A stretch of 64,000 nt of DNA, from positions 7,215 to 71,214 of the forward strand of contig SVNR01000001.1 in NCBI GenBank assembly GCA_015066815.1, written 5' to 3'. The notes beneath the pieces are model-generated. The model had not been told where the DNA came from, ran no database searches, and saw only the letters and a list, made by a program, of their open reading frames with translations. Positions 5,287 to 29,504 of this stretch are shown piece by piece. This DNA is from Ruminococcus sp. (GTDB taxonomy: Bacteria; Bacillota; Clostridia; Oscillospirales; Ruminococcaceae). Position 1 is the first letter of the stretch, and every line of letters starts with the position of its first letter. A program made the position numbers and the translations under genes.

Positions 5287-5289
5287 ATA

Positions 5290-7066: not shown

Positions 7067-7092
7067 GAAAAAAACACTTTAAATTAATAATG

Positions 7093-12034: not shown

Positions 12035-12064
12035 ATTATACCATGCGCCGATCTGTTTAATCAA
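12035..12064 (-). promoter_or_regulatory. sigmaA promoter of the first esterase
   Basis: TTGATT-18-TATAAT with TG extension. Confidence 0.55.
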
Positions 12065-12197
12065 TAGAAACGGACAATGAAGAAAATATATTACCTATTT
12101 AAGTAAAAATATTTCATTATACTGATGCTTAAACTTGAAGAAACAGCAAAAAACGAGAGCATGCTCCTCATGAACATGCTCTTTGCATAATATTTTT

Positions 12198-13862: not shown

Positions 13863-13908
13863 ATAGATCCTCCCGAAAAAAAATTCTAAAGACATTTATG
13901 ATTTGTAT

Positions 13909-14049: not shown

Positions 14050-15108
14050 TCAGTCTATCTCCGGTCCGTCATAATCTTCGGATATTTCTTTTTCATATTC
14101 ATTTGCTGAAAAATCACTTTCCGGGCTTGCAGACATTTCAGAATTCTGATGAGCGTTTTGCGGACTTGAAAAATCATTTCCGATCACATATGGATTGGCC
14201 TGACTGCCGTCTTCCGACAAAACGTAAACGTTCATTTTTTTCCCGTTTCCATATTCTATAACACCTGTTTTTTTACTTTTCATACCAAGGATAGTCGATA
14301 TTATCAGTATGAACACAACAATATTCCAGACACCTATCATGAGCATTGAATTAAAAATACTGCCTATATTGATCTTCATGGATGTTCTGTGTCCGGGTTT
14401 TCTGGTAAATGCTTTTATAAAGGCATCTTCTGTGGTGTTGCTGTTGTCTCTGAGCTCTTCCTGAAGCTTTTTCTTAAACTCTGAAAAATCATCTTCTGAT
14501 ATTACTCCGAGTGTACGGTCGCCCTGTATTACATCACAGCTCCAGTTTGTACCACGGTCCTTGGTGCCGGCCGGCTGGGAATAAACAACGAGCAAGTGCT
14601 GTTCATCTGAAAAATACCCGTTATCCATATAAACCTCATAGGCAAAATCCTTAAGCTCTGCAAACGGTGCGCTCCATATTTCCTCATCAATAGTAAATAT
14701 AAAAGGACATACTCCTGTTTTTTCTTTATAAGTTTCAAGAGCCTTGTCAAGCTCGGATGTATCTGAAAAAAATCCGGAATAATCAGATATATGACTTGAA
14801 TGCGAACATTTTACCGGCTCGATTTTTTCCGGCTTTATGTTAGTGGAATTTCTTAATGTTCTGAAAAACAAAAGAAAGCTTATGAGCATCATAGGAATAA
14901 GAACTGCAAGCCTTGCTATACCTGCTTTCTTTGAAACTGCATTCTGAGCCATAGCCATATCGCCGTCGCTGTCTGCCAGACTATGGTACCTGGAACGGTG
15001 ACGATGTGAACTGCCGTGATTCAATCCTCCGTGATATGTTCTTTGATGAAAAGAGCTGTTGTGGTGAGAACCTCCGTGGTGATGTCCTCCGCCTGATCTG
15101 TGTGACAT
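14050..15108 (-). CDS. Membrane protein with His/Gly-rich N-terminus and a TPM-like domain
   Basis: Two TM segments flank HISDYSGFF...ELDKAL..YKEKTGVCPF...DEQHLLVVYS; RBS aggag. Confidence 0.6.
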   Translation of the reverse strand: MSHRSGGGHHHGGSHHNSSFHQRTYHGGLNHGSSHRHRSRYHSLADSDGDMAMAQNAVSKKAGIARLAVLIPMMLISFLLFFRTLRNSTNIKPEKIEPVKCSHSSHISDYSGFFSDTSELDKALETYKEKTGVCPFIFTIDEEIWSAPFAELKDFAYEVYMDNGYFSDEQHLLVVYSQPAGTKDRGTNWSCDVIQGDRTLGVISEDDFSEFKKKLQEELRDNSNTTEDAFIKAFTRKPGHRTSMKINIGSIFNSMLMIGVWNIVVFILIISTILGMKSKKTGVIEYGNGKKMNVYVLSEDGSQANPYVIGNDFSSPQNAHQNSEMSASPESDFSANEYEKEISEDYDGPEID

Positions 15109-15168
15109 AAAAAATCAATCTCCTGTTCTTTTTTATTTTGATAGCTATATGTTTTTCATATACAGTCG

Positions 15169-15198
15169 ATTATATCATAATCACGGGTAAAATGTCAA
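15169..15198 (-). promoter_or_regulatory. sigmaA promoter of the TPM-like gene
   Basis: TTGACA-18-TATAAT. Confidence 0.65.
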
Positions 15199-15199
15199 A

Positions 15200-15236
15200 T
15201 TATGAAAGCCGGATTTATTCTGACGTTCACTATAAT
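15200..15236. repeat. Degenerate REP-like palindrome copy 3
   Basis: Right arm tgacgttcactataa intact, left arm decayed (ttatgaaagccggattt). Confidence 0.55.
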
Positions 15237-15516
15237 TAATAGAAAAAAATCCGGTTATATAAAACAAGATATATATACCACAGATAAATTTCATAAAAAA
15301 AAAGGATAAAAACGGAATATAAACATCTGTTTTTATCCTTTTTTCAGTTTCTGAATTTTTCGGCAAATCTAACAAAAAACTGGCTTTAAAGTAATCCGTT
15401 ATTTAGTTCGTCATATATCGATATATACAATACCAATATGCAAAACTGGCAATTCCGCAATTATATCAATTGTGATATAATAAATGTAAATATGTAAAGT
15501 AGGAGAGGTGTATTCT

Positions 15517-16446
15517 ATGAATAAAATTTCTATCATCGGTGCCGGCAGCGTCGGCTCCACAATCGCGTACACACTTACAGTAATGGGTATTGCTTCTGAG
15601 ATCGTAATGATCGATATCAATACTGCAAAGGCAGAGGGCGAAGCTCTTGATATCATTCAGGGCACACCGTTCTGCAACCCTTGCTCAATCTACCAGGGCA
15701 GCTATGAAGATGCTGAAGGTTCAGACATTGTAATCCTCACATCCGGCATCGCAAGAAAGCCCGGTCAGACAAGACTTGAGCTTGCTCAGACAAACGTAAA
15801 CATCACAAAGTCAATCATTCCTGAAATCACAAAGCATGCTCCGGATGCGATCTACATCATTGTCAGCAACCCTGTTGACGTACTGACATACACATTCTGC
15901 AAGCTTTCAGGTATTCCTGAAAACCGCATCATCGGTTCAGGCACTATCATTGACACATCACGTCTTCGTGCAAAGCTCAGCGAATGCTACAACGTAAGCC
16001 AGAACAACGTTCACTCTTACGTATTCGGCGAGCATGGCGATTCTTCATTTGTTCCGTGGTCCCTCGCAAACATCTCCGGTATCCCTATGGATGAGTGCGG
16101 CAAGTTCTTCGGAACACCTGACGTAAACTACGATGAGATTGAAGACTTCGTAAGAAAGTCCGGCGGACAGGTAATCCAGCGCAAGGGTGCTACATTCTAT
16201 GCAGTAGCTATCTCAGTATGCCACATCTGCGAGCGCATTCTCCACGGTATCGACACAGCTATGCCTGTTTCAACAATGATGCACGGCGAATACGGCGTTG
16301 ACGATGTATGTCTCAGCACTCTCAACCTCGTAGGAAAAATGGGCGTACGCAGCAAGGTTAACGTTCCTCTTACAGAAGAAGAACAGGTTAAGCTCCGCCG
16401 CAGCGCAGATGCACTCAAGCAGGTTATCAACAGTCTCGAAATCTAA
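15517..16446 (+). CDS. mdh: LDH/MDH-family dehydrogenase, probably malate dehydrogenase
   Basis: GAGSVG, GEHGDS; the specificity loop ARKPG has Arg (MDH-type) rather than Gln; precedes fumarase. Confidence 0.8.
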   Translation: MNKISIIGAGSVGSTIAYTLTVMGIASEIVMIDINTAKAEGEALDIIQGTPFCNPCSIYQGSYEDAEGSDIVILTSGIARKPGQTRLELAQTNVNITKSIIPEITKHAPDAIYIIVSNPVDVLTYTFCKLSGIPENRIIGSGTIIDTSRLRAKLSECYNVSQNNVHSYVFGEHGDSSFVPWSLANISGIPMDECGKFFGTPDVNYDEIEDFVRKSGGQVIQRKGATFYAVAISVCHICERILHGIDTAMPVSTMMHGEYGVDDVCLSTLNLVGKMGVRSKVNVPLTEEEQVKLRRSADALKQVINSLEI

Positions 16447-16466
16447 TCATCAAGGTGGTAAAAAAT

Positions 16467-17843
16467 ATGGAATATCGTATAGAACATGATTCTATGGGCG
16501 AAATGAAAGTTCCGGCTGACCGTCTCTGGGCAGCTCAGACACAGAGAAGCCATGAGAATTTTGAAATCGGCGTTGACATAGAAACAATGCCAAGAGAAAT
16601 AACTCATGCTTTCGGAATTCTCAAAAAAGCAGCAGCTCTTGCAAATCACGAGCTCAAGAGCGAAAAAATGACAGCTGAAAAGCTCAGCGTTATCACAAAG
16701 GCATGCGACGAGGTTATCTCCGGTGAGCTCAACAGCCACTTCCCTCTCGTAGTATGGCAGACAGGTTCAGGCACACAGTCAAACATGAACGCAAACGAGG
16801 TTATCGCAAACCGCGCAAACCAGCTTGCTGACAAGAAGCTTGTTCATCCTAACGATGACATAAACATGAGCCAGTCTTCAAACGACACTTTCCCGACTGC
16901 TATGCACATATCAGCAGTTATCGCTATCGAAGATAAGCTTATTCCTGCTGTTGAAACACTTATCGAAACATTCAAAAGACTCGAAGCTGAAAACGAAGGA
17001 ATCGTAAAGTCCGGTCGTACACACCTCCAGGACGCAACACCTATCACATTCAGCCAGGAAATAAGCGGATGGCGTTCAAGCCTCGAAAGAGACGCAGAGC
17101 TCCTCAGAATGTCTGTAAAGCCTCTCTGTGAGCTTGCACTCGGCGGAACAGCTGTCGGCACAGGTCTTAACGCTCCTAAGGGATTCTCAGAGCTTGTTGC
17201 CGCTAAGGTGGCAGAGCTTACAGGAAAGCCTTTTGTAACTGCACCTAACAAGTTCCACGCTCTCACATCAAAGGATGAATTCGTGTTTGCACACAGTGCT
17301 ATCAAGGCTACTGCATGCGATATGATGAAGATCGCAAACGACATCCGCTGGCTCGCATCCGGTCCGCGTGACGGTCTCGGAGAGATCCGCATTCCTGAAA
17401 ACGAACCGGGTTCATCAATCATGCCGGGCAAGGTAAACCCGACACAGTGCGAAGCTGTAACTATGGTTGCCGTTCAGGTAATGGGCAATGATACAGCAGT
17501 TACTGTAGCTGCTTCTCAGGGTAACTTTGAGCTCAACGTATTCATGCCGGTTGCTGCATATAACTTCCTCCAGTCCGCACGTCTCCTTGCTGAAGCAATA
17601 ATCTCCTTCAACAAGAACTGTGCAGTAGGCATCACTGCCGACAAGGAAAAAATGCATCACAATCTCCATAACTCACTTATGCTTGTAACAGCTCTCAACC
17701 CGTACATCGGTTATGAGAACGCTGCAAAAACAGCTAAAAAAGCTTATAAAGACAACATTTCCCTCAAGGAAGCCTGCGTTGAGTTAGGATTCCTTACAGC
17801 GGAAAAATTTGACGAGGTATTCCATCCGGAACAGATGGTATAA
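16467..17843 (+). CDS. fumC: Class II fumarate hydratase
   Basis: GSSIMPGKVNP signature; QTGSGT, SGRTHLQDATP. Confidence 0.95.
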   Translation: MEYRIEHDSMGEMKVPADRLWAAQTQRSHENFEIGVDIETMPREITHAFGILKKAAALANHELKSEKMTAEKLSVITKACDEVISGELNSHFPLVVWQTGSGTQSNMNANEVIANRANQLADKKLVHPNDDINMSQSSNDTFPTAMHISAVIAIEDKLIPAVETLIETFKRLEAENEGIVKSGRTHLQDATPITFSQEISGWRSSLERDAELLRMSVKPLCELALGGTAVGTGLNAPKGFSELVAAKVAELTGKPFVTAPNKFHALTSKDEFVFAHSAIKATACDMMKIANDIRWLASGPRDGLGEIRIPENEPGSSIMPGKVNPTQCEAVTMVAVQVMGNDTAVTVAASQGNFELNVFMPVAAYNFLQSARLLAEAIISFNKNCAVGITADKEKMHHNLHNSLMLVTALNPYIGYENAAKTAKKAYKDNISLKEACVELGFLTAEKFDEVFHPEQMV

Positions 17844-17871
17844 TCTCTTGAAACTATTTTGGAGGTAAACA

Positions 17872-18666
17872 ATGAAAGTCAGTTATTTCCCGGGCTGTAC
17901 CCTCCGCACAAAGGCAAAGGATCTTGATTTTTATGCTCGCAAATGCGCCGAAATCCTCGGCGTAGAGCTTTGCGAGATCAAGGACTGGCAGTGCTGCGGC
18001 GCTTCCTTCGTTTCTGCAAAGGACGAGGTTGCATCCAAGCTCTCCAGTGTCCGTGCACTTGTTGCCGCAAGGGATGAAGAACAGCCGCTCGTTACTGTCT
18101 GTTCAGCATGTCACAATGTCATAAAGCAGACAAATGACGCTATGCAGACAGACGAAGAATTCGCAAACAAAGTAAACCTTTATATGGCACAGGATAAGGA
18201 TCCTTCAGAACCTTACCACGGTGAAACACAGGTATATCACTATCTCGAAATGCTCCGTGACACCGTAGGCTTTGACAAGATCAGAGAAGCTGTAAAAAAT
18301 CCCCTCACCGGCAAAAAAATTGCCGCTTACTACGGATGTATGCTTCTCCGTCCCGGCAAGGTAATGAACTTTGACGATCCGGAAAATCCAACGATCATAG
18401 AAAACTTCATAAGAGCACTCGGCGCAGAGCCGGTCGTATATCCGGCAAGAAACGAATGCTGTGGCAGCTACGTAGTACTCGAGGATGCTGATTCTGCAAA
18501 GAAGAAGAGCAACTCCGTATCAGACAGTGCTGCAAACCACGGCGCTGAGATGATAGTTACTGCTTGTCCTCTCTGCAAGTACAACCTCGAAAAGAGCGGA
18601 AGCTCCATACCTGTTGTTTACTTTACAGAGCTGCTTGCTGTAGCACTCGGCGTAAAGGAGGACTAA
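17872..18666 (+). CDS. hdrB: Heterodisulfide reductase subunit B-like (two CCG domains)
   Basis: YFPGC, CCG, CSAC, YYGC, CCGS, ACPLC. Confidence 0.92.
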   Translation: MKVSYFPGCTLRTKAKDLDFYARKCAEILGVELCEIKDWQCCGASFVSAKDEVASKLSSVRALVAARDEEQPLVTVCSACHNVIKQTNDAMQTDEEFANKVNLYMAQDKDPSEPYHGETQVYHYLEMLRDTVGFDKIREAVKNPLTGKKIAAYYGCMLLRPGKVMNFDDPENPTIIENFIRALGAEPVVYPARNECCGSYVVLEDADSAKKKSNSVSDSAANHGAEMIVTACPLCKYNLEKSGSSIPVVYFTELLAVALGVKED

Positions 18667-18670
18667 TAGC

Positions 18671-19063
18671 ATGCTTAATAAAACAGAGCGTCAGAAGGAA
18701 CAGATCCTTCGCATGAGCGGTGTAAATCCTCTCAAGTGCATGCGCTGCGGAAAATGCTCCGGCACATGCCCTTCATATGATGAGATGGAATATCATCCGC
18801 ATCAGTTTGTATACATGGTTGAAACAGGAGATATCGAAGCTCTCAGAAACTCCGACTCAATCTACAAGTGTCTTTCATGCTTTGCATGCGTAGACAGATG
18901 TCCGCGCGGTGTTGAACCTGCAAAGCTTGTTGAAGCGTTAAGACTCTCGGTTATCCGTGAAAAGGACGCAAACCACCTCACAGCAAACCAGATTCCGGCA
19001 CTTATCGATGATGAGATTCCTCAGCAGGCTCTCATGAGTGCTATGAGAAAATATTCCAAGTAG
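18671..19063 (+). CDS. hdrC: Heterodisulfide reductase subunit C-like
   Basis: CMRCGKCSGTCP and CLSCFACVDRCPRG. Confidence 0.9.
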   Translation: MLNKTERQKEQILRMSGVNPLKCMRCGKCSGTCPSYDEMEYHPHQFVYMVETGDIEALRNSDSIYKCLSCFACVDRCPRGVEPAKLVEALRLSVIREKDANHLTANQIPALIDDEIPQQALMSAMRKYSK

Positions 19064-19082
19064 AAAGGAGAAATATATTCCC

Positions 19083-21077
19083 ATGCAGAGAATCGGAGTA
19101 TTTGTCTGTCATTGCGGTACTAACATTGCCGGAACGATAGACGTAAAAGCAGTTGCCGAAGCACTGAAAAATGAGCCGGGTGTTGTTTTCTCCACCGACT
19201 ATCAGTATATGTGCTCCCAGGCAGGACAGGACATAATCAAGGACGCTATAGCTGAACACAAGCTTACAGGTATCGTAGTCTGCTCATGCTCTCCACGTAT
19301 GCACGAGGCTACATTCCGCAAGACTGCAGCTGCAGCAGGCCTTAACTCATACATGGTAGAGATAGCAAACATCCGTGAACAGTGTTCATGGGTACACAAG
19401 GAAATACCGATCGGTACAGAAAAGGCTATCATTCTCGGAAAAGCAGCAGTAGCAAAGGTAAACCTCAACACACCTCTCACACCGGGAGAAAGCCCTGTAA
19501 CAAAGCGTGCGCTTGTTATCGGCGGCGGTATAGCAGGTATCCAGACTGCTCTTGATATTGCCGATGCAGGCTTCCCTGTTGATATCGTTGAAACAAAGCC
19601 TACAATAGGCGGTAAAATGGCTCAGCTCGACAAGACATTCCCTACACTCGACTGTGCAGCTTGTATCCTCACTCCAAAAATGGTTGAGGTTGCACAGCAC
19701 GAAAACATAAGAATCTTCTCATACAGCGAGGTATCCGAAATAAAGGGCTTCGTAGGCAACTTCGACGTTACTATCAAGCGTCGTGCCCGTTATGTTAAGG
19801 AAGATATATGTACAGGATGCGGAGCTTGTACCGAAAAATGTCCTCAGAAGAAGGTTCCGAACGAGTTCAACCTCGGTATGGACACACGTCGTGCTATATA
19901 TATTCCTTTTGCACAGGCAGTTCCTAAGGTAGCAACTATCGACGCTGACTACTGTACAATGCTCAAGACAGGCAAGTGCGGTGTATGTTCCAAGGTATGT
20001 ACTGCAGGCGCTATAGACTATCAGGCAAAGGACGAATTTATCGAAGAAAAGTACGGTGCTATCGTAGCTGCAACCGGTTTTAACCCTATCTCTATGGATA
20101 AGTTTGATGAGTTTGCATACTCACAGTCCAAGGACGTTATAACTTCACTTGAATTCGAAAGACTTACAAACGCTGCAGGTCCTACTGCCGGCAAGCTTCT
20201 CCGTCCTTCTGACGGCGAGCATCCGCACACTATCGTGTTTGTACAGTGCGTAGGTTCAAGATGTGATGCATGTGCAGAAAAGGGTAAGGAATACTGCTCA
20301 AAGATCTGCTGTATGTACACTGCAAAGCACGCTATGCTTACACGCGACAAGTATCCTGACACAGATGTTTATGTATTCTATATAGATGTACGTACACCGG
20401 GTAAGAACTTTGACGAGTTCTATCGCCGTGCAGTTGAAGAATACGGCGTTCACTATATCAAGGGTATGGTAGGAAAGGTTTCACCTGAAGGCAACAAGCT
20501 CAAGGTTCAGGCCTCCGACCTTATTGCAGGAAAGCAGCTCCATATCGACGCTGATCTCGTTGTTCTCGCTGCAGCAATAGAGCCTGACAAGTCAGCTCGT
20601 CCGCTCGCAACAATGCTCACAGCAAGTATGGATACAAACGACTTCTTCACAGAAGCTCATCCTAAGCTCCGTCCTGTAGAAAGCCCGACAGCAGGCGTAT
20701 TCCTCTCAGGTACATGCCAGGGTCCTAAGGATATCCCTGAAACAGTATCACAGGCAGGCGCTGCAGCTTCCAAGGTTATCGGACTTCTCGCCAAGGATAA
20801 GCTCACAGGTAACCCTTGTGTTGCTCACTCAGACGAAAACATGTGTAACGGCTGTTCAACATGTGAAAAGGTTTGTCCTTACGGCGCTATCACATATCAG
20901 GATAAGGAATTCAGAATGCCGGACAGAACAACAAAGATACGTCGTATCGCAGTTGTAAACGAAGCTGTTTGTCAGGGCTGCGGCTGCTGTACAGTTGCTT
21001 GTATGTCAGGCGCTATGGACCTTAAGGGCTTCATGAATAAACAGATTATGGCGGAGGTAGACGCAATATGCAAGTAA
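19083..21077 (+). CDS. hdrA: Heterodisulfide reductase subunit A-like flavoprotein
   Basis: RIGVFVCHCG, CSCSP, NIREQCSW, GGGIAG, LDKTFPTLDCAACIL, CSKICC, ferredoxin motifs. Confidence 0.95.
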   Translation: MQRIGVFVCHCGTNIAGTIDVKAVAEALKNEPGVVFSTDYQYMCSQAGQDIIKDAIAEHKLTGIVVCSCSPRMHEATFRKTAAAAGLNSYMVEIANIREQCSWVHKEIPIGTEKAIILGKAAVAKVNLNTPLTPGESPVTKRALVIGGGIAGIQTALDIADAGFPVDIVETKPTIGGKMAQLDKTFPTLDCAACILTPKMVEVAQHENIRIFSYSEVSEIKGFVGNFDVTIKRRARYVKEDICTGCGACTEKCPQKKVPNEFNLGMDTRRAIYIPFAQAVPKVATIDADYCTMLKTGKCGVCSKVCTAGAIDYQAKDEFIEEKYGAIVAATGFNPISMDKFDEFAYSQSKDVITSLEFERLTNAAGPTAGKLLRPSDGEHPHTIVFVQCVGSRCDACAEKGKEYCSKICCMYTAKHAMLTRDKYPDTDVYVFYIDVRTPGKNFDEFYRRAVEEYGVHYIKGMVGKVSPEGNKLKVQASDLIAGKQLHIDADLVVLAAAIEPDKSARPLATMLTASMDTNDFFTEAHPKLRPVESPTAGVFLSGTCQGPKDIPETVSQAGAAASKVIGLLAKDKLTGNPCVAHSDENMCNGCSTCEKVCPYGAITYQDKEFRMPDRTTKIRRIAVVNEAVCQGCGCCTVACMSGAMDLKGFMNKQIMAEVDAICK

Positions 21078-21502
21078 ACGAATATAAGCCGCTTATTGTG
21101 GCATTCTGCTGTAACTGGTGTTCCTACGCAGGTGCTGACCTTGCAGGTAACAACAGACTCAACTATCCGGCAGAAGTAAAGATCATACGTGTTCCATGCT
21201 CATGCAGAGTAAACCCTATGTTCATACTCCGTGCTTTCCAGCGCGGCGCTGACGGTGTTATCCTCTGCGGATGCCATCCGGGAGACTGTCACTATACATC
21301 AGGAAACTATTTTACACGCCGTCGTATGGCACTTCTCTTCTCTATGCTTGATTTTCTTGGTATCGAGAGAGAGCGTACACGCGTAGAGTGGGTTTCTGCT
21401 GCAGAAGGTGCAAAGTTTGCAGCAACAATGAACGACTTTGTTGAGAAGGTCGTTGCTCTCGGCGAAAACAAGAGACTGGAGGATTTGAGATGCAAGAAAT
21501 AA
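21068..21502 (+). CDS. flxD: MvhD/FlxD [2Fe-2S] subunit
   Basis: FCCNWCSYAGAD, PCSCRV, GCHPGDCHY. Confidence 0.9.
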   Translation: MQVNEYKPLIVAFCCNWCSYAGADLAGNNRLNYPAEVKIIRVPCSCRVNPMFILRAFQRGADGVILCGCHPGDCHYTSGNYFTRRRMALLFSMLDFLGIERERTRVEWVSAAEGAKFAATMNDFVEKVVALGENKRLEDLRCKK

Positions 21503-22482
21503 AACGCGAAGTTCTCGTAGCAAAGGCATCTGAATTACTCGGAAACGGTACAGTAGACCGTGTAATCGGCTGGAAAAACGGAGAATTTGACTATGATGTG
21601 ACACCTGCGGTTTTCACTTCAGCTGAAGAGCTCGAAAAGGAGTTCGTATGGAATGATTTCTGCGGTGCAAACTTCTCAAAATATCTTATCAAGGAGACAG
21701 GAAAGAGCGAAGGTAAGGTAATGGTTTTCTTAAAGCCATGCGATACCTACAGCTTCAACCAGCTCCTCACAGAACACAGATTTGACCGTGAAAAGGTATA
21801 CGTTGTAGGCGTACCATGTAACGGAATGCTTGACGACAGCAAGGTAAGAGCATGCTCTGAGGGTATCGCTTCTGTAAGCGAGGAAAACGGCAAGGTAGCT
21901 GTAGAAACTCTTTACGACGGAAAGCTCACATTCGAAAGAAACGATATGCTTGCTGAACGCTGCATAAACTGTAAGTCCAAGAAGCACACAGCTTATGACG
22001 AGCTTCTCGGCGAAGACGGCGAGGTTCTCGACAGTGCAAGATTTGACGAGGTAGAAAAGCTTGAAAAAATGACACCGGATGAGCGTTTTGCTTTCTGGCA
22101 GAATGAGCTTTCACGCTGCATACGCTGTAACGCATGCCGCAACATCTGTCCGGCTTGCTCATGCGAGAAGTGCGTTTTCGACAATCCTGATTCAGGTGTT
22201 GAAAACAAAGCTGTAGCTGACTCCTTCGAAGAAAAAATGTTCCACATTATCCGTGCCTTCCACGTAGCAGGAAGATGTACAGACTGCGGCGAATGTTCAA
22301 GAGTATGTCCTCAGAATATCCCGCTTCATCTCCTCAACCGTAAGTTCATAAAGGACATAAACGAGTTCTACGGCGAATATCAGGCAGGTGCAGAAGCAGG
22401 AAGCCGTGCTCCTATCGTAGACTATACTACAGAGGATATCGAACCGAGTGAAGCAGTAGAAAGAGGTGGAGATAATGCGTAA
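21490..22482 (+). CDS. flxC: FlxC-like 4Fe-4S protein
   Basis: KPCD, CIRCNACRNICPACSC, AGRCTDCGECSRVCP; position in the hdr-flx order. Confidence 0.75.
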   Translation: MQEIKREVLVAKASELLGNGTVDRVIGWKNGEFDYDVTPAVFTSAEELEKEFVWNDFCGANFSKYLIKETGKSEGKVMVFLKPCDTYSFNQLLTEHRFDREKVYVVGVPCNGMLDDSKVRACSEGIASVSEENGKVAVETLYDGKLTFERNDMLAERCINCKSKKHTAYDELLGEDGEVLDSARFDEVEKLEKMTPDERFAFWQNELSRCIRCNACRNICPACSCEKCVFDNPDSGVENKAVADSFEEKMFHIIRAFHVAGRCTDCGECSRVCPQNIPLHLLNRKFIKDINEFYGEYQAGAEAGSRAPIVDYTTEDIEPSEAVERGGDNA

Positions 22483-23494
22483 AATATCACTTGACAAGTT
22501 AAACCTTCTTTTTTCTGAGATAGCTTCAAAGAACAGTCTCTATATGCCTGTAGACACAGAGGCAGGCGCTAAGTTTGAAAAATACAACGGTACACAGACT
22601 CTCTCCGACGCAGTAAATACCGTAAGAAGCGCTAAGGATTTCTTCTTTCCTCAGACAGAAAACCTCGTTGACTTCAAGGTTGAAGGCAAGAACATAGAGA
22701 TCATCGAACCGGTAAACGAATATGAAGACTTCGTTGTTTTCGGCGTTCGTGCATGTGATGTGAAGAGCTTCGAAATACTTGACAGAGTATTTCTTGCAGA
22801 GCCTGTAGATACATTTTACAAGAACCGCCGCGAACACGGTATCATCATATCAATGGCTTGTAACAAGCCGTCAGAAACATGCTTCTGCGGTACTTTCGGC
22901 ATAGACGCTTCCAGTCCTGCCGGCGATATCGTATGTTACAAGACAGACGACGCTCTCTATCTTGAAGCAAAGACAGAAAAGGGCTCAGCTCTTCTCGATA
23001 GCTTAAACGGCGTTACAGAGGATTCTGACAGTGAAGCTGCCAGAGCACAGCAGGAAGTTATCAAGGAAAGACTTGCAAAGCTTCCTCTCTCAGGACTCAG
23101 CGCAGAGGCATTCGGCGCAGACAAGACAAAGGAATTTTTCGACGCTCCGGAGTGGAATACACTTTCCGAATCATGCCTCGGATGCGGAACATGTACTTTT
23201 GTATGTCCTACATGCCAGTGCTATGATATCAAGGATTTCAACACAGGACGCGAAGTAAAGCGTTTCCGCTGCTGGGATTCATGCATGTACTCCGACTTCA
23301 CAAAGATGGCTCACGGCAATCCGCGTCTCAGCCAGCTTGAACGTTTCCGTCAGAGATTCATGCATAAGCTCGTATACTATCCTACAAACAACGAAGGCAT
23401 CTTCGGCTGCGTAGGATGCGGACGCTGCATGGCTAAGTGCCCTATCAATATGAACATCGTCAAGGTTATGAAAAAGTTAGGAGGCAACAAATAA
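22475..23494 (+). CDS. flxB: FlxB/AsrA-like 4Fe-4S protein
   Basis: GVRACD, CLGCGTCTFVCPTCQC, RFRQRFMHK, CVGCGRCMAKCP. Confidence 0.8.
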   Translation: MRKISLDKLNLLFSEIASKNSLYMPVDTEAGAKFEKYNGTQTLSDAVNTVRSAKDFFFPQTENLVDFKVEGKNIEIIEPVNEYEDFVVFGVRACDVKSFEILDRVFLAEPVDTFYKNRREHGIIISMACNKPSETCFCGTFGIDASSPAGDIVCYKTDDALYLEAKTEKGSALLDSLNGVTEDSDSEAARAQQEVIKERLAKLPLSGLSAEAFGADKTKEFFDAPEWNTLSESCLGCGTCTFVCPTCQCYDIKDFNTGREVKRFRCWDSCMYSDFTKMAHGNPRLSQLERFRQRFMHKLVYYPTNNEGIFGCVGCGRCMAKCPINMNIVKVMKKLGGNK

Positions 23495-24327
23495 TGGCTG
23501 ATATGAAAGATCCTCTTATCCCCGTAGTGGGCGTAGTAACCGATATCCGTATAGATACTCCGGACGTAAAGACCTTCAGAGTTGTTACTCCCGACGGAAA
23601 AAAGGCTTTTGATCACAAGCCCGGTCAGTGCGCTATGCTCTCTATCCCGGGTGTAGGCGAAGCAATGTTTTCAATTACTTCATCACCTACAAACACAGAG
23701 TTTATGGAGTTTTCCATCAAGAAGTGCGGATGCGTTACACAGTGGCTTCACTCTATGGAGGTAGGTCAGCAGATTACTATCCGCGGACCTTACGGAAACG
23801 CTTTCCCTGTTGATACAGAGTTTGTAGGCAAGGATATGCTCTTTATCGCCGGCGGTATCGGTCTCGCTCCGCTTCGTTCAGTAATCAACTACTGCCGTCA
23901 CTATCGTGACCGCTACGGAAAGATCGACATAGTTTACGGTTCAAGAAGTATGGAAGACCTTGTTGACTACAAGGAAATCATAGACGAGTGGGTAAAGGAT
24001 GAAGGCATAAACGTTCACCTTACTATCGACCGTGAACAGCCTGAATGGAACGGACACGTTGGCTTTGTTCCTAACTACGTAAAGGAACTCGGTTTTTCAA
24101 CCGACAAGACAGCTATTCTCTGCGGACCTCCGATAATGATCAAGTTCACACTCGCAGGACTTCAGGAAATAGGCTTTGATAAGACACAGGTATACACAAC
24201 AATGGAGCTTCGTATGAAGTGCGGCGTAGGAAAATGCGGCCGCTGCAACATCGGTTCAAAGTATGTCTGCAAGGACGGTCCTGTATTCCGCTGCGATCAG
24301 GTTGACGAGCTTCCTGACGAATATTAA
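23494..24327 (+). CDS. flxA: FlxA/AsrB-like FAD/NAD-binding oxidoreductase
   Basis: RGPYGN, AGGIGLAP, CGPPIM, MKCGVGKCGRC. Confidence 0.85.
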   Translation: MADMKDPLIPVVGVVTDIRIDTPDVKTFRVVTPDGKKAFDHKPGQCAMLSIPGVGEAMFSITSSPTNTEFMEFSIKKCGCVTQWLHSMEVGQQITIRGPYGNAFPVDTEFVGKDMLFIAGGIGLAPLRSVINYCRHYRDRYGKIDIVYGSRSMEDLVDYKEIIDEWVKDEGINVHLTIDREQPEWNGHVGFVPNYVKELGFSTDKTAILCGPPIMIKFTLAGLQEIGFDKTQVYTTMELRMKCGVGKCGRCNIGSKYVCKDGPVFRCDQVDELPDEY

Positions 24328-24362
24328 TATTTTTAAAAGAAACCGAGAGGAGTTTATATACA

Positions 24363-25037
24363 ATGGAAAATATGGTAAATATTTACCTGTTCGGTAAACA
24401 GTATACTGTTCCGGATCATCTCACAATCATGCGTGCTATGGAATATGCCGGTTACCAGCTTGTCCGCGGATGCGGATGCCGTAACGGATTCTGCGGCGCA
24501 TGTGCAACTATCTACCGTATCAAGGGTGATACTCAGCTTAGAACATGTCTTGCTTGTCAGACAAAGGTTGAAGAAAACATGTACGTTGCTACACTTCCTT
24601 TCTTCCCTCTTGTAAAGCAGGTTTACAACATAGAAGAGGTTAAGCCTACAGAACAGATAATGATGCAGCTCTATCCTGAGATCTACGCATGTGTAGGATG
24701 TAATGCATGTACAAAGAGCTGTACACAGTCTCTTAACGTAATGCAGTACATAGCTTACGCTCAGAGAGGCGAATTCGAACTCTGCGCAGAAGAATCATTT
24801 GACTGCGTAATGTGCGGTGTTTGTTCTTCACGCTGCCCTGCCGGAATCTCACATCCACAGGTAGCTATGCTCGCAAGAAGAATCAACGGTAAGTACCTTG
24901 CTCCTGCAAGTGCACACCTTGAAAACCGTGTTCAGGAAATCGAAAACGGCACATTTACCGAGCTTATCGAAGCACTTATGGGCAAGCCGATTGAAGAACT
25001 CAAAGAACTCTACAACAACAGAGATATCGAAAAGTAA
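24363..25037 (+). CDS. SdhB/FrdB/TfrB-like Fe-S subunit (2Fe-2S + 2x4Fe-4S)
   Basis: GCRNGFCGAC...C, CVGCNACTKSC, CVMCGVCSSRCP; no CCG domain. Confidence 0.8.
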   Translation: MENMVNIYLFGKQYTVPDHLTIMRAMEYAGYQLVRGCGCRNGFCGACATIYRIKGDTQLRTCLACQTKVEENMYVATLPFFPLVKQVYNIEEVKPTEQIMMQLYPEIYACVGCNACTKSCTQSLNVMQYIAYAQRGEFELCAEESFDCVMCGVCSSRCPAGISHPQVAMLARRINGKYLAPASAHLENRVQEIENGTFTELIEALMGKPIEELKELYNNRDIEK

Positions 25038-25052
25038 GGAGGCCAAACCAAT

Positions 25053-26660
25053 ATGTATTCATCAGAATTTCAGGAATCGTTAAAGAAGGTTGAAGCTGCA
25101 AGAGAGGCAAATATTGCGTATGAGCCTGCTCGTATGACAGCACAGGAAAAGGAAGAGCTCCTTGCTGCTTATCATCCTGACTACAAGAAGAGCGAATTTT
25201 CCACACTTAAGGTAGGCCCTAACAAAGGCGAAGTAGTTCCTCACGAACTCTGTGAGCTTCTCGAAGCAAACAGCCGCATCAAGGCTTCTGATGTTGATCT
25301 TAACGACGTAAAGTACGACGTTGACGTTCTCATCATCGGTGCCGGCGGTGCAGGTACTTCAGCTGCAGTTGAAGCACACAATGCAGGCGCAAATACTATG
25401 ATAGTAACAAAGCTCCGTATGGGCGATGCAAACACAATGATGGCTGAAGGTGGTATCCAGGCAGCTGACAAGGAAAACGACTCTCCTGCGACTCACTTCG
25501 TAGACGCATTTGGCGGCGGTCACTTTGCTGCTAAGCGTGAGCTTCTTGCTAAGCTCGTTTGCGACGCTCCCGGCGCTATCAAGTGGCTCAACGAGCTCGG
25601 CGTAGAGTTCGACAAGGACGAAAACGGCACAATGATCACAACACACGGCGGCGGTACTTCACGTAAGAGAATGCACGCTGCAAAGGACTACTCCGGTGCT
25701 GAGATCATGCGTACACTCCGTGATGAAGTAATCAACCTCGGTATCCCTGTAGTAGACTTCACTTCTGCTGTAGAGCTTATCCTTGATGAAAACGGAAAGG
25801 CTGCCGGTGCAGTTCTCATGAACATGGAAACAAAGGAGCTTATGGTAGCACGTGCTAAGACTGTAGTAATAGCTACAGGCGGTGCAGGACGTATGCACTA
25901 TCAGGGCTTCCCTACATCAAACCACTACGGTGCTACAGCAGACGGTCTTGTTCTCGGCTACAGAGCAGGCGCAAAGCTTCTCTATGCTGACACACTCCAG
26001 TATCATCCGACAGGTGCAGCTTATCCTCAGCAGATCTTCGGTGCTCTTGTTACTGAAAAGGTTCGTTCACTCGGTGCAAAGCTCATCAACTGCGACGGTA
26101 AGGTATTCATGCATCCGCTCGAGACACGTGACGTAGCTGCTGCTTCTATCATCCGTGAATGCTCAGACAGAAACTCAGGTATCGATACAGGTAGCGGAAA
26201 GGCTGTATGGCTCGATACTCCTATGATCGAAAAAATCGGCGGCGAGGGTACTATCGAAAAGAGAATCCCTGCAATGATGCGTATGTTCGCAAGCTACGGA
26301 ATAGACATCCGCAAGGAGCCTATCCTTATATACCCGACACTCCACTACCAGAACGGCGGTCTTGACATAAACGTAAACGGTATGACAACAAACGTTGAAA
26401 ACCTCTTTGTTGCCGGCGAGGCTGTAGGAGGAATCCACGGCAGAAACCGTCTTATGGGTAACTCACTTCTTGACATTATCGTATTCGGCCGCAACGCCGG
26501 AATAAACGCAGCTGCTGCATCAAAGAACGTAACAGTTGGCAAGCTCACACTTTCACACATCGAAAAGTATGACGCTGAACGTGAAGCAGCAGGCATCAAG
26601 ACAGACGCAGTATCACCAATGTTACTGCCGGATTATCGCGGAAACAAAAGCGGAATCTGA
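25053..26660 (+). CDS. Soluble fumarate reductase flavoprotein (TfrA/FrdA-like)
   Basis: GAGGAG; QYHPT, ETRD, TLHYQNGG, GRNRLMGNSL catalytic motifs; NTMMAEGG lacks the covalent-FAD His. Confidence 0.85.
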   Translation: MYSSEFQESLKKVEAAREANIAYEPARMTAQEKEELLAAYHPDYKKSEFSTLKVGPNKGEVVPHELCELLEANSRIKASDVDLNDVKYDVDVLIIGAGGAGTSAAVEAHNAGANTMIVTKLRMGDANTMMAEGGIQAADKENDSPATHFVDAFGGGHFAAKRELLAKLVCDAPGAIKWLNELGVEFDKDENGTMITTHGGGTSRKRMHAAKDYSGAEIMRTLRDEVINLGIPVVDFTSAVELILDENGKAAGAVLMNMETKELMVARAKTVVIATGGAGRMHYQGFPTSNHYGATADGLVLGYRAGAKLLYADTLQYHPTGAAYPQQIFGALVTEKVRSLGAKLINCDGKVFMHPLETRDVAAASIIRECSDRNSGIDTGSGKAVWLDTPMIEKIGGEGTIEKRIPAMMRMFASYGIDIRKEPILIYPTLHYQNGGLDINVNGMTTNVENLFVAGEAVGGIHGRNRLMGNSLLDIIVFGRNAGINAAAASKNVTVGKLTLSHIEKYDAEREAAGIKTDAVSPMLLPDYRGNKSGI

Positions 26661-26684
26661 TTTTTGAAGGAGAAGATTTAATTT

Positions 26685-27959
26685 ATGGAATTGTTCGATG
26701 GAGTTATTAGAATATCGGGAGTATCCTTTCTGATGTTCTCTATCATGGCTATTATCGCACTTGGTTTTTTACTCGGACGCATCACTATAAAGGGTGTGTC
26801 CCTCGGCACTGCCGGCGTATTTATCGTAGCGCTTCTTTTTGGTGCACTGTTCTACCCTGACATACAGATGCAGCTTGACAAATCCGCAGAAGTAAGCGCA
26901 ATGACTTCAAACGCCCTGAAGATCGTAGAAAACGTAGGTCTTATACTGTTCGTTACATCAGTAGGCTTTATTGCAGGACCTAAGTTCTTCAAGAACCTCA
27001 AGATGAACTTCAAATCCTATGTTTTACTGGGTGTTGTGGTTATTCTCTCAGCAGGTCTCACCTGCCTTGCATGCTTCTTTATCGGACGCGGCGCAGAAAA
27101 CAGCGACGCTGAATTCATCGCTATGCTCGACGGTCTGCTCTCCGGTTCACTTACAACAACACCGGGCTTTGCAGCAGCAAAGGAAACTGTTAAGAACAAG
27201 TATGCAGCAGATCCGGATCTCGCAGCACAGTGTGAAGCTGCTGTTACAGTAGGTCACGGTATCGCATATCTCTTCGGAGTTGTCGGCGTTGTTCTCTTCG
27301 TTCAGATCATTCCTAAGATCACAAAGGCAAACATGGATGAAGAACGCAAGAAGCTTCAGAGTGTTGATTCCGGTTCTGCAAAGGCTTTTTCAGGAAAGCT
27401 TACAGACATTGACGGCATGGGACTCTGCGCATTTGCTGCAGCAGCGTTTATCGGACTTTTTATCGGAAACATAAGAATCCCTATGTCCTCAAGCGGTCTT
27501 TCAGGCACATGCTTCTCACTCACAACAACAGGCGGCGCACTTATCTCCTCACTTGTTTTCGGACATTTTTCACGTATCGGCAAGGTAAACATCATGCCAC
27601 AGAAAAACACACTCGAAAACCTTCGTGAGCTCGGACTCGTACTCTTCCTTATAGGTGCCGGTGTCGCAGGCGGTAAGGACTTCGTTGCTTACTTTAAACC
27701 TATATACTTCATCTACGGCGCTATAATGACCATCGTTCCGATGATTATCGGCTATCTTGTTGCCAAGTATGTTTTAAAACTGAGTCTTCTTAATAACCTC
27801 GGCTCCCTTACCGGTGGTATGACATCCACTCCGGCTCTTGGTACTCTTATCAACGTTGCCAAGACTGAGGATGTTGCTTCTGCATATGCTTCAACCTATC
27901 CGATAGCACTTCTTGCAGTTGTACTGGTATCACAATTTCTTATTGTATTATTTGGATAG
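26685..27959 (+). CDS. AspT/YidE/YbjL-family antiporter (candidate succinate exporter)
   Basis: Duplicated GSLTTTPGF / GGMTSTPALG motifs; many TM segments. Confidence 0.8.
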   Translation: MELFDGVIRISGVSFLMFSIMAIIALGFLLGRITIKGVSLGTAGVFIVALLFGALFYPDIQMQLDKSAEVSAMTSNALKIVENVGLILFVTSVGFIAGPKFFKNLKMNFKSYVLLGVVVILSAGLTCLACFFIGRGAENSDAEFIAMLDGLLSGSLTTTPGFAAAKETVKNKYAADPDLAAQCEAAVTVGHGIAYLFGVVGVVLFVQIIPKITKANMDEERKKLQSVDSGSAKAFSGKLTDIDGMGLCAFAAAAFIGLFIGNIRIPMSSSGLSGTCFSLTTTGGALISSLVFGHFSRIGKVNIMPQKNTLENLRELGLVLFLIGAGVAGGKDFVAYFKPIYFIYGAIMTIVPMIIGYLVAKYVLKLSLLNNLGSLTGGMTSTPALGTLINVAKTEDVASAYASTYPIALLAVVLVSQFLIVLFG

Positions 27960-27982
27960 TTTATAACTGACGGGTGGTATTT

Positions 27983-28597
27983 ATGAAACAGATTGAGATA
28001 TCACGAGCGACTATGGGTCGTATACCGATCTATCTTAAATATCTTAAAGATACAGATCTTTGTACCGAAAATATTTCAGCTACAGCCCTTGCAAAAGGGC
28101 TCGGGCTGGGAGAAGTCCAGGTTCGTAAGGATCTGGGTGCTGTCAGCGGTGCCGGCAGACCAAAAACGGGCTACAATGTTTCGGAGCTGATAAACGTTCT
28201 CGAAAACTTTCTTGGACGAAACGAAAACAGCAGTGTTGTTATAGTAGGTGCCGGAAAGCTCGGGAGAGCGTTGCTTGACTACAGCGGGTTTCAGGAATAC
28301 GGTCTTGATATAATGGCTGCTTTTGATGCAGCAGTATCAGAACCCGAAAAGAGCAACTTAGGCAAGCCTATATATTCTATGGATGCTCTCGACAGCTTCT
28401 GCAAGGAGAACAACATACGGATAGGCGTTATCGCTGTACCGGCTCACAGTGCGCAGGAAATATGCGACCGTTTTATAAGAAACGGTATCCGTGCAATATG
28501 GTGCTTTGCTCCGTGCGTACTTTCCGTACCGCCCGAAATTCCCGTACAATATGAAAACATGGCACTTTCTCTCGCATATCTTAATAAAAAAATATAA
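27983..28597 (+). CDS. rex: Redox-sensing repressor Rex
   Basis: RIPIY, VQVRKDL, GYNV, VGAGKLGRAL, IWCFAP. Confidence 0.92.
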   Translation: MKQIEISRATMGRIPIYLKYLKDTDLCTENISATALAKGLGLGEVQVRKDLGAVSGAGRPKTGYNVSELINVLENFLGRNENSSVVIVGAGKLGRALLDYSGFQEYGLDIMAAFDAAVSEPEKSNLGKPIYSMDALDSFCKENNIRIGVIAVPAHSAQEICDRFIRNGIRAIWCFAPCVLSVPPEIPVQYENMALSLAYLNKKI

Positions 28598-28604
28598 ATT
28601 TTTT

Positions 28605-28638
28605 CACCCCCTGTTTCCCGAAAAGGTAACAGGGGGTG
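28605..28638. terminator. Bidirectional terminator between rex and pnuC
   Basis: caccccctgtt/aacagggggtg with T-runs. Confidence 0.75.
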
Positions 28639-28644
28639 TTTTTT

Positions 28645-29343
28645 CTATGCTTTTACTCTTACGTTTTTATCTCTGTGTATTTCTGTCTCCCACTTTACGC
28701 ACATGACAACTGCGTTTATCAGATAGACCATCCACATAAGAAGTGTAGCTGCAGAGCCGTCAGGAAGCGTTGATATCCACATCATCACTGTAAGGAGATC
28801 CACGACAAACCACAGCCACCACTGCTCTGAAAACATTTTTATGCTTATTATCAGCGCAACAACAGATGATACTGTTGTAAAGGCGTCAACAAACGGAAGT
28901 GTTCCGCCTATTTTTCTGAGAAAAGCCCCGTACATAACAGTTCCAAGCAGTATGGCAAGGATACATAAAACTCTCAGCTTGTTTGTCATGTGCCTCTTTG
29001 TGACCTCGTTTGTCTCCTGATTCATGTTTTTTCTCCACACACAGAAACCGTAGAACTGCATGGGAACATAGTAGATAACGTTCAGCATAGTTTCCCCATA
29101 GAGCTTTGCCTTATATGAAATATATGCATACAGCACACAGTTTATCAGACCGAATATATATGCCGAAAGCTTCCCCTTGCCTGTACAGACAACACATGCA
29201 ACACCTGTTATTGCCGATACTATCCCCATCATGTTATCCTTCCAGTAAACACTTAGTCCGCCGATAATGACGCAGCATACTATAAACCAGATTATTTCCC
29301 AGCTTTTCCATCCGGACAGTTCTCTTTTTATAAAATTTTTCAT
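28645..29343 (-). CDS. pnuC: PnuC-family vitamin/nicotinamide riboside transporter
   Basis: GKLSAYIFG, YYVPMQFYGF..W, DAFTT, EQWWLW.VVD. Confidence 0.85.
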   Translation of the reverse strand: MKNFIKRELSGWKSWEIIWFIVCCVIIGGLSVYWKDNMMGIVSAITGVACVVCTGKGKLSAYIFGLINCVLYAYISYKAKLYGETMLNVIYYVPMQFYGFCVWRKNMNQETNEVTKRHMTNKLRVLCILAILLGTVMYGAFLRKIGGTLPFVDAFTTVSSVVALIISIKMFSEQWWLWFVVDLLTVMMWISTLPDGSAATLLMWMVYLINAVVMCVKWETEIHRDKNVRVKA

Positions 29344-29381
29344 CTTATATATTTTTCTCCATTCTTATATGATTTTTTTTA

Positions 29382-29410
29382 TTGATTTTTACGTAGTTTT
29401 ATAATATAAT
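29382..29410 (+). promoter_or_regulatory. sigmaA promoter
   Basis: TTGATT-17-TATAAT. Confidence 0.6.
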
Positions 29411-29504
29411 GATTATATCAAAGTGAAAAGAGGGTTTAGTTTGTTAAAAAAGCCTTCTTTAAACATCAGCTTCATACAGCTAAGATTATGATTGGAGGGG
29501 AACT

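Follow-up and report, generated by a model that had tools for sequence, protein, structure and literature searches.

A malate dehydrogenase, fumarase, Hdr-Flx and fumarate reductase operon in a cellulosomal Ruminococcus sp. and its predicted role in quinone-free, ferredoxin-coupled succinate formation

In the gut and rumen, succinate is important both for cross-feeding and as a signal to the host, and its textbook routes run through membrane-bound, quinone-dependent fumarate reductases. For Pseudoclostridium (Hungateiclostridium) thermosuccinogenes, a "succinate operon" (CDQ83_RS03365-03315) has been described that contains genes for fumarate hydratase, seven Flx-Hdr proteins, two fumarate reductase proteins and a putative transporter (Koendjbiharie et al. 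2020, PMC7282089). The coupling of fumarate reduction to ferredoxin reduction via Flx-Hdr was proposed there, with a 2019 preprint (Koendjbiharie and van Kranenburg, doi 10.20944/preprints201912.0288.v1) being cited for this hypothesis; the operon was about 4-fold upregulated under CO2 limitation, and H2 inhibited succinate formation (PMC7282089). In the present study, we analysed a stretch of 64,000 nucleotides (hereafter, the window) of a Ruminococcus sp. genome (GenBank assembly GCA_015066815.1, contig SVNR01000001.1, positions 7,215 to 71,214 of the forward strand), which contains a 13-gene cluster of this kind, extending from malate dehydrogenase (mdh) and fumarase (fumC) genes through hdrBCA-flxDCBA to a fumarate reductase (frdB'A), a transporter gene and rex.

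Several related systems are known. For FlxABCD-HdrABC of Desulfovibrio vulgaris Hildenborough, oxidation of NADH and bifurcation to ferredoxin have been proposed (Ramos et al. 2015, as cited in PMC7282089 and PMC6315080). TfrAB of Methanothermobacter is a soluble thiol:fumarate reductase whose donors are coenzyme M (CoM-SH) and coenzyme B (CoB-SH) (Heim et al. 1998, as cited in PMC6315080). In tubeworm symbionts and Thioflavicoccus mobilis, clusters for the reductive tricarboxylic acid (TCA) cycle combine flxABCD-hdrABC, korABCD and tfrAB, and a complex with direct electron transfer was suggested (Rubin-Blum et al. 2019, PMC6315080). In addition, Bcd-EtfAB and caffeyl-CoA reductase use NADH to reduce a C=C acceptor and ferredoxin at once, the energy being conserved by Rnf (PMC5861303).

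The cluster found in the window consists of 13 plus-strand open reading frames (ORFs); mdh, the first, begins with an ATG at 15517, and rex, the last, has its stop codon at 28597 (Table 1). Their order is mdh, fumC, hdrB, hdrC, hdrA, flxD, flxC, flxB, flxA, frdB', frdA, the AAEx transporter gene and rex, and the intergenic spacing ranges from -58 to +35 nt, some of the frames overlapping. The gene assignments, made from Pfam and NCBIfam profiles and the ORF translations, bore out the gene set, order and coordinates 15517-28597 given in a first-pass annotation of this DNA. Its remark that the cluster encodes neither DsrC nor an FrdC/D anchor nor a hydrogenase catalytic subunit also held within the operon (for the anchor families, the search covered the operon and not the whole genome). 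The flx genes are contiguous with the hdr genes, with overlapping frames, as expected from the gene content of FlxABCD-HdrABC.

Based on this gene content, we infer a single complex with NADH as the donor, bifurcation to ferredoxin and thiol-free direct wiring. That such a soluble Hdr-Flx-Frd complex would bifurcate NADH-derived electrons to ferredoxin and fumarate through iron-sulfur (FeS) clusters, with the succinate being exported, seems to us fairly probable. The pathway would start with GTP-dependent phosphoenolpyruvate carboxykinase (GTP-PEPCK), encoded in the genome outside the operon, which would carboxylate phosphoenolpyruvate to oxaloacetate; no ATP-type PEPCK was found genome-wide. 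Then, Mdh would convert oxaloacetate to malate, and FumC would convert malate to fumarate. The hydride from NADH would enter the complex at FlxA, and FlxB, FlxC and FlxD would relay electrons to the flavin adenine dinucleotide (FAD) of HdrA, where the pair would be split by flavin-based electron bifurcation. The low-potential electron would pass through the ferredoxin-like domains of HdrA to ferredoxin (Fd), and the high-potential electron would pass through HdrC and the non-cubane clusters of HdrB to the [4Fe-4S] and [2Fe-2S] clusters of FrdB', then to the FAD of FrdA and to fumarate. The net reaction would be 2 NADH + fumarate + Fd(ox) -> 2 NAD+ + succinate + Fd(red). The reduced ferredoxin would be reoxidized by Rnf, generating an ion gradient (a quinone-free "fumarate respiration"), or by [FeFe] hydrogenases, and succinate would leave the cell through the AAEx transporter.

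The proposed bifurcation to ferredoxin is suggested by the full-length, bifurcation-type HdrA and by thermodynamics. HdrA residues 3-661 align with residues 5-648 of 5odc_A (E 1.4e-202), a structurally characterised electron-bifurcating HdrA. Both the inserted and the C-terminal ferredoxin domains are kept, and their FeS cysteines are invariant in 74 orthologues. The FeS cysteines of HdrB, HdrC (8 of 8 among the orthologues), the Flx proteins and FrdB' are likewise invariant or nearly so, and FlxD is about 90% identical among close loci. The standard potentials (E0') are -320 mV for NADH, about +30 mV for fumarate/succinate and about -420 to -500 mV for ferredoxin; therefore, about -30 to -50 kJ per reaction (2 NADH) would be left over.

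The same gene content would fit a soluble NADH:fumarate oxidoreductase that does not bifurcate, in which Flx-Hdr is a mere wire, no ferredoxin is reduced and the energy is dissipated. Electron transfer from NADH to fumarate is exergonic by itself, and no ferredoxin gene was annotated within the operon with Pfam and NCBIfam. We nevertheless regard this as rather unlikely, because nine subunits with a whole bifurcation-type HdrA would be wasteful where single-subunit NADH-fumarate reductases suffice, and because the two HdrA ferredoxin-like domains are kept with their cysteines. Consumers of reduced ferredoxin are also encoded in the genome, namely a complete rnfCDGEAB cluster and three or four [FeFe] hydrogenases. 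Furthermore, H2 suppresses succinate formation in P. thermosuccinogenes, as would be expected if ferredoxin has to be reoxidized (PMC7282089). Both this inhibition and the transcriptomic response of that organism fit the bifurcating mechanism.

The fumarate-reducing part would be formed by FrdB' and FrdA. FrdB' (224 aa) has one [2Fe-2S] motif and two four-cysteine [4Fe-4S] motifs, and it does not contain a CCG domain. It covers positions 19-148 of the 488-position TfrB profile only, that is, the N-terminal third; its similarity to solved SdhB structures is weak, and its cysteines are at least 96% conserved in 91 orthologues. FrdA (535 aa) is extended at its N-terminus by about 86 aa, and the C-terminal domain known from SdhA/TfrA is missing. 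A natural fusion in the representative library (P0189, 727 aa), in which residues 1-217 correspond to FrdB' and residues 211-727 to FrdA together with its extension (53% identical), shows that the two act as one unit, the extension of FrdA following the C-terminus of FrdB'. The best NCBIfam match of FrdA is TfrA (NF004900, 325.9 bits with a cut-off of 718, profile positions 5-418 of 546), and its score lies under every NCBIfam equivalog cut-off. An AlphaFold (AF2) model, which is moderate (pLDDT 68.7, shallow alignment) and was used for fold assignment only, matched E. coli FrdA best (1kf6_A, E 8.7e-25).

The motifs HPT (QYHPTG), TEKVR, ETRD (with the catalytic proton-donor Arg), HYQNGG and GRNRL are kept in FrdA, and QYHPTG, ETRD, HYQNGG and GRNRL are at least 95% conserved. 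The His to which FAD is covalently bound is replaced by Asn (GDANTMMAEGG), invariant in 38 aligned orthologues and at least 95% conserved in 97; FAD is therefore predicted to be bound non-covalently. In E. coli, His44 variants of FrdA keep fumarate reduction, and succinate oxidation is abolished. It could be argued from the low equivalog scores, the unusual extension and the missing C-terminal domain that fumarate is not the substrate of the flavoprotein, or that the complex oxidizes succinate. We find this barely credible: the dicarboxylate-binding and proton-donor motifs are conserved to the extent given above, frdA is linked to mdh and fumC in most loci and to the exporter gene in about 45 of 96, and a non-covalent FAD would disfavour the oxidation of succinate.

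The operon is not confined to the strain studied. The core hdrB-hdrC-hdrA-flxD-flxC-flxB-flxA-frdB'-frdA is kept in this order, contig permitting, in all 96 close loci, across which FrdA identity is 64-100%, and mdh, fumC, the transporter gene and rex are variably present. With a criterion of E < 1e-90, at which all full-length matches were 65-89% identical, a FrdA orthologue was found in 99 genomes (55 of 217 genera) when 399 were sampled evenly from the class. At least 8000 FrdA clusters at 90% identity exist in a collection of 5.8 billion proteins, and the GTDB species genomes contain more than 570 loci. The carriers are mostly metagenome-assembled genomes (MAGs) from gut and rumen labelled Ruminococcus, Acutalibacteraceae and Oscillospiraceae, together with one isolate, Yeguia hominis NSJ-40. 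When an orthologue of 65% identity was used to seed a second search, the core block was also found in psychrophilic Clostridium, in Fusobacteriota (Cetobacterium somerae ATCC BAA-474, Psychrilyobacter) and in Halanaerobiales. The cultured carriers encountered include Yeguia hominis NSJ-40, Cetobacterium somerae ATCC BAA-474 and Clostridium estertheticum. In Dethiobacter-like MAGs (loci L171, L173-L175 and L178), the block is contiguous with the permuted order frdB'-frdA-hdrB-hdrC-hdrA-flxD-flxC-flxB(-flxA). There, frdA adjoins hdrB, and a class I fumarase gene and a malic-enzyme-like gene precede frdB'.

A number of observations weigh against the proposed mechanism. No enzymatic or structural evidence for the complex, the NADH donor or ferredoxin reduction was found in the full-text literature searched. 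No FrdB'-HdrB or FrdB'-HdrC fusion occurs among the 150 best FrdB' representatives, and the canonical cysteines of HdrB (Cys 9, 41, 42, 77, 80, 156, 196, 197, 232 and 235), all 10 of which are invariant in 72 orthologues, fit thiol/disulfide chemistry as well as a relay. The scarcity of UbiA-family genes in FrdA-bearing genomes (7 of 99, compared with 114 of the 300 other genomes; Fisher p 5e-10), which in itself speaks for the mechanism, is uncorrected for phylogeny. Upstream of mdh, no match to the Rex operators TTGTTAANNNNTTAACAA or TTGTGAANNNNTTCACAA was found within 3 mismatches. Finally, about 45 loci of Syntrophomonadaceae MAGs from soda lakes (L186 (4223-12804), L166, L177, L179-L188, L190-L204, L206-L207 and L209-L222) contain frdB'A (about 60% identical) and no hdr or flx gene within 10 kb. 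Six of 12 such genomes have an hdrBCA-flxDC block elsewhere, with HdrA being 57-59% identical, and the other six have HdrA paralogues of 49-53% only, without adjoining hdrBC.

Some of these observations could be accommodated by a thiol-mediated process, in which Flx-Hdr would reduce ferredoxin together with a low-molecular-weight or protein disulfide at HdrB and the resulting thiol would feed FrdB'A, as a bacterial analogue of Tfr. HdrB aligns over its full length with the methanogen HdrB structures 8rvv/5odc, and its CCG cysteines, which the first-pass annotation had reported as intact, are indeed all present and invariant despite the poor conservation of the rest of the protein in the same orthologues. 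TfrA is the best family match of FrdA, and the unlinked frdB'A of Syntrophomonadaceae would be explicable by a diffusible carrier. Even so, we judge this process unlikely. Thiol oxidation by Tfr needs the CCG half of TfrB, so a thiol shuttle would require a second CCG-type site; FrdB' has none, and in a genome-wide search HdrB was the sole CCG protein. Genome-wide searches also found neither DsrC (PF04358) nor ComA (PF02679); the thiol-related searches covered these two and CCG, with CoB synthesis, glutathione and bacillithiol genes being outside their scope. Moreover, the flanks of the 96 loci share no conserved gene that resembles a carrier. It should be noted that CCG subunits can serve SdhAB-type modules without thiols: in the type E succinate:quinone reductase (SQR)/methylmenaquinol:fumarate reductase (MFR) SdhABE, the CCG subunit SdhE is paired with SdhAB and no thiol chemistry takes place. 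The best NCBIfam match of HdrB is this MFR subunit SdhE (1.4e-46, 159 bits with a cut-off of 500). In addition, TfrB already unites FrdB'-, HdrC- and HdrB-like parts in one polypeptide. For these reasons, direct wiring is the more economical solution, and electrons probably pass from HdrC/HdrB to FrdB' through iron-sulfur clusters and not by a free thiol. The disulfide that the first-pass annotation had considered has become less likely.

Another explanation of the unlinked loci is that FrdB'A is autonomous and uses another donor (e.g., reduced ferredoxin directly), the adjacent Flx-Hdr serving a different acceptor. Indeed, the neighbours of the unlinked frdB'A genes encode 2-oxoacid:ferredoxin oxidoreductase, class I fumarase, a malic-enzyme-like protein and a family III CoA-transferase, and a close HdrA orthologue was not found in half of the 12 genomes mentioned above. 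FrdB'A is thus not always genomically tied to Hdr-Flx, and it may have another electron partner in some lineages. For the operon in question, however, autonomy seems highly improbable. The nine genes are contiguous and co-oriented in the 96 close loci, as they are in the loci of Fusobacteriota, Clostridium and Halanaerobiales, and they stay together even in the permuted frdB'A-hdrBCA-flx order. No alternative high-potential acceptor to which HdrB could pass electrons is apparent in the genome, as neither a second CCG protein nor DsrC is encoded, and the MAGs without a close HdrA may simply be incomplete. As a separate observation, the setting of the unlinked Syntrophomonadaceae genes looks like a reductive TCA branch.

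The host genome (assembly of 2.64 Mb, 96.7% complete) was searched for other routes to succinate. No second fumarate reductase flavoprotein was found genome-wide: apart from FrdA, FAD_binding_2 occurs at full length in NadB only, which is encoded beside NadC, and this candidate was rejected. A UbiA-family (MenA-type) prenyltransferase was absent genome-wide as well, the search control being positive in 14 of 14 genomes. The first-pass annotation had claimed a quinone-free route from oxaloacetate to exported succinate; its genes are complete, and the genome-wide checks, which covered FrdA-like flavoproteins and UbiA-family prenyltransferases, favour a route free of both quinone and membrane anchor. 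Overall, that interpretation is supported in part, and well so at the genomic level; it has already been published as a hypothesis.

Taken together, the Hdr-Flx-Frd proteins might constitute a distinct class of bifurcating enzymes, namely an NADH-dependent, ferredoxin-reducing fumarate reductase with an HdrABC that has no disulfide substrate and in which the HdrB clusters are a pure relay. With Rnf, it would sustain a quinone- and cytochrome-free fumarate respiration in about a quarter of Clostridia species and in some Fusobacteriota. We put the chance of this wider proposal somewhat short of even.

The coordinates of the genes and transcription signals are collected in Table 1.

Table 1. Genes and predicted transcription signals of the operon (positions in the window)
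Feature	Product or description	Position	Strand	Basis
Candidate promoter	Extended -10 TGATATAAT	15473-15481	+	Read by eye from sequence
Shine-Dalgarno	GGAGAGG	15502-15508	+	9 nt 5' of mdh ATG 15517
mdh	LDH-like (type 3) NAD-dependent malate dehydrogenase	15517-16446	+	Ldh_1_N, Ldh_1_C
fumC	Class II fumarate hydratase	16455-17843	+	TIGR00979 702.6 bits (cut-off 664.75), Lyase_1, FumaraseC_C
hdrB	HdrB	17872-18666	+	CCG domain PF02754 x2, sites of two non-cubane [4Fe-4S] clusters
hdrC	2x[4Fe-4S] electron-transfer subunit	18671-19063	+	Fer4_8/Fer4_17; TIGR03290 62.9 bits (cut-off 160)
hdrA	FAD and FeS flavoprotein, bifurcating HdrA type	19083-21077	+	NCBIfam HdrA2 791 bits (cut-off 1100)
flxD	MvhD-like [2Fe-2S] connector	21068-21502	+	PF02662 FlpD 7.8e-55
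flxC	FeS protein	21490-22482	+	4Fe-4S dicluster domains, residues 206-277
flxB	FeS protein like AsrA/sulfhydrogenase beta	22466-23494	+	Fer4_22; ShyB, HydB, AsrA below cut-off
flxA	NAD(P)H-binding FAD protein with C-terminal FeS	23437-24327	+	FAD_binding_6, NAD_binding_1, DHODB_Fe-S_bind; AsrB/HydG-like
frdB'	SdhB/TfrB-N-half-like FeS subunit	24363-25037	+	Fer2_4 and Fer4 dicluster
frdA	Anchor-less fumarate reductase flavoprotein	25053-26660	+	FAD_binding_2 1.1e-65
AAEx transporter gene	AAEx-family (AspT/YidE/YbjL) transporter, putative succinate exporter	26685-27959	+	Asp-Al_Ex (PF06826) x2, TIGR01625
rex	NADH/NAD+-sensing repressor	27974-28597	+	NF003994 235.4 bits (cut-off 130)
Intrinsic terminator	Hairpin, stem CACCCCCTGTT/AACAGGGGGTG then T-run	28605-28645	.	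-23.2 kcal/mol, z -4.5

Given the tight packing and the terminator after rex, the best explanation of the 13 genes is one predicted transcription unit for a reductive C4 fermentation branch. No convincing internal terminator was seen in the terminator scan of the operon. The terminator between the convergent genes rex and pnuC was spotted by eye and then folded. It was missed by the promoter/terminator scan owing to its 11-nt loop; the matches of that scan were no more numerous than in shuffles, and the candidate -10 element upstream of mdh is absent from its consensus promoter output. The true start of flxA is probably the ATG at 23494, which overlaps the flxB stop codon. No Rfam match to a riboswitch or leader RNA was obtained in 14900-29600 at E up to 1. 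A further hairpin, GGATAAAAAC...GTTTTTATCC, is located at 15295-15345 (-22 kcal/mol, z -6.8), with an A-run on one side and a T-run on the other. It has the look of a bidirectional terminator, yet it lies between divergent genes, 170 nt upstream of mdh, and has no Rfam match; it could terminate a small unannotated transcript or serve as a leader attenuator.

The first gene of the operon passes both the L-lactate dehydrogenase (L-LDH) and the malate dehydrogenase subfamily cut-offs in NCBIfam. L-LDH models score highest, and this candidate was rejected based on the operon context and on the discriminating loop G-I-A-R-K-P-G (G-x-x-R-K-P-G). Lactate dehydrogenases have Gln at the substrate-discriminating position, and the Arg of this loop is invariant in 59 of 59 orthologues; hence, the gene is assigned to an LDH-like malate dehydrogenase. 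FumC shows 85-93% identity among close loci. With 424 aa, the AAEx transporter is a short one, its two repeats having no detected domain between them. It belongs to the TCDB family 2.A.81, as does SucE, the succinate exporter of C. glutamicum (PMC7419537), and its substrate would presumably be succinate too. Rex has the DNA-binding N-terminus and the Rossmann NADH-binding domain of its family and passes the NCBIfam cut-off. It would probably tie operon expression to the NADH/NAD+ ratio; among 50 related operons, 10 have a Rex box with at most 2 mismatches upstream, compared with 0 of 50 shuffles.

The downstream flanks of related loci (e.g., L055, L057 and L049) contain further genes. In 22 loci, a membrane protein that is conserved and about 100 aa long is encoded 3' of frdA and might be an alternative exporter. 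Genes for a NuoE-like [2Fe-2S] protein and a HydS-like sensory [FeFe] hydrogenase occur in 15-19 downstream flanks, and one for a SpoIIE-type phosphatase occurs in 7. This points to H2-sensing regulation beside the operon in some species.

The operon of the window is surrounded by parts of a cellulosome (733-1896, 10758-13895, 29505-31925 and 33311-35143), comprising a GH5 cellulase, two dockerin esterases (one with CBM_4_9), a DUF4832/DUF4874 dockerin protein and a protein with cohesin and CAP domains. These genes for dockerin, cohesin and GH5 proteins mark the host as a fibre degrader with a cellulosome, and the fibre-degrading habit agrees with the first-pass annotation. In addition, a bacteriocin-type export pair is encoded on the minus strand, with an ABC transporter that has an N-terminal C39 peptidase domain at 8096-10372 and an HlyD-family protein at 5290-6432. 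Its region (low-GC stretch 4001-10000) has a GC content of 32-34%, compared with about 41% in the window, and is possibly a mobile bacteriocin locus.

The operon region (16001-26000) has a GC content of 46-47%, in comparison with 39-42% in its flanks. In a comparison with genomes G379, G123, G254 and G012, FrdA of the sole other carrier of the same family is only 79% identical, and those of other families are up to 89% identical. This contrast in GC content and the higher identity in other families hint that the operon has moved laterally among gut Clostridia.

The operon would explain succinate formation and energy conservation, in the form of extra reduced ferredoxin for Rnf or H2, in quinone-free Clostridia including cellulosomal fibre degraders. 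Being so common, it will be overlooked by metabolic models and by H2 and methane balances of gut and rumen communities if these consider FrdABCD alone. If the proposed mechanism is true, HdrA-family bifurcating enzymes gain a new acceptor and possibly a thiol-free mode. The hypothesis has been in print since 2019-2020 and is thus not new, and the design is very widespread. What is added here is its frequency across the class, the anticorrelation with UbiA, the single CCG protein as an argument that no thiol shuttle operates, the invariant replacement of His by Asn in FrdA, the variants that are permuted, unlinked or found in other phyla, and a list of cultured carriers. The window itself adds a member in which mdh and rex are included, in a cellulosomal host.

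Among known systems, the operon of P. thermosuccinogenes has the same gene content; this likeness relies on the published description, as that locus was outside the 160 loci retrieved for alignment. GTP-PEPCK feeds the pathway in both organisms. The operon of the window differs in being led by mdh and ended by rex, and its host is a small-genome cellulosomal organism of the gut or rumen, whereas P. thermosuccinogenes is a thermophile. Flx-Hdr of D. vulgaris consists of the same seven protein types (FlxA, FlxB, FlxC, FlxD, HdrA, HdrB and HdrC). Its proposed acceptor is DsrC, which is missing from the window genome, and it functions in ethanol and sulfate metabolism. In the window, unlike in D. 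vulgaris, the order is hdrBCA-flxDCBA with frdB'A directly following.

In the methanogen MvhAGD-HdrABC complexes (PDB 5odc, 8rvu and 7bkb), HdrA, HdrB and HdrC align over their full length with the proteins of the window, all the FeS cysteines of methanogen Hdr are kept, and FlxD is a homologue of MvhD. The methanogen donor is a hydrogenase or formate dehydrogenase, whereas the donor module of the window would use NAD(P)H; the acceptor is CoM-S-S-CoB in methanogens and presumably the fumarate reductase in the window. The enzyme of Methanothermobacter, TfrAB, is likewise soluble and quinone-free. FrdB' matches the N-terminal FeS part of TfrB, the middle part of which corresponds to HdrC and the C-terminal part to HdrB. 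TfrB has CCG domains of its own, whereas in the window they belong to a canonical HdrB, a protein apart that HdrA would supply with electrons. Compared with TfrA, FrdA lacks the C-terminal domain, has about 86 additional N-terminal residues and scores far below the Tfr cut-offs.

The clusters of the tubeworm symbionts resemble the window in that Flx-Hdr genes are interspersed with those of a Tfr-like fumarate reductase. They differ in gene order and belong to gammaproteobacterial autotrophs with the reverse TCA cycle, and the unlinked Syntrophomonadaceae loci resemble this context more than the operon of the window does. With quinol:fumarate reductases and SQR, FrdA shares the catalytic His-Pro-Thr, the Arg donor and the His and Arg substrate ligands; FrdABCD and SdhABCD, however, carry a covalent 8-alpha-histidyl FAD at the site where FrdA has Asn. 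SdhABE is membrane-associated and quinone-dependent, in contrast to the window genome with no UbiA-type prenyltransferase. Lastly, the Bcd-EtfAB type is a functional analogue only: it is based on Etf and acts on CoA esters, whereas the system of the window would be based on HdrA and act on a free dicarboxylate.

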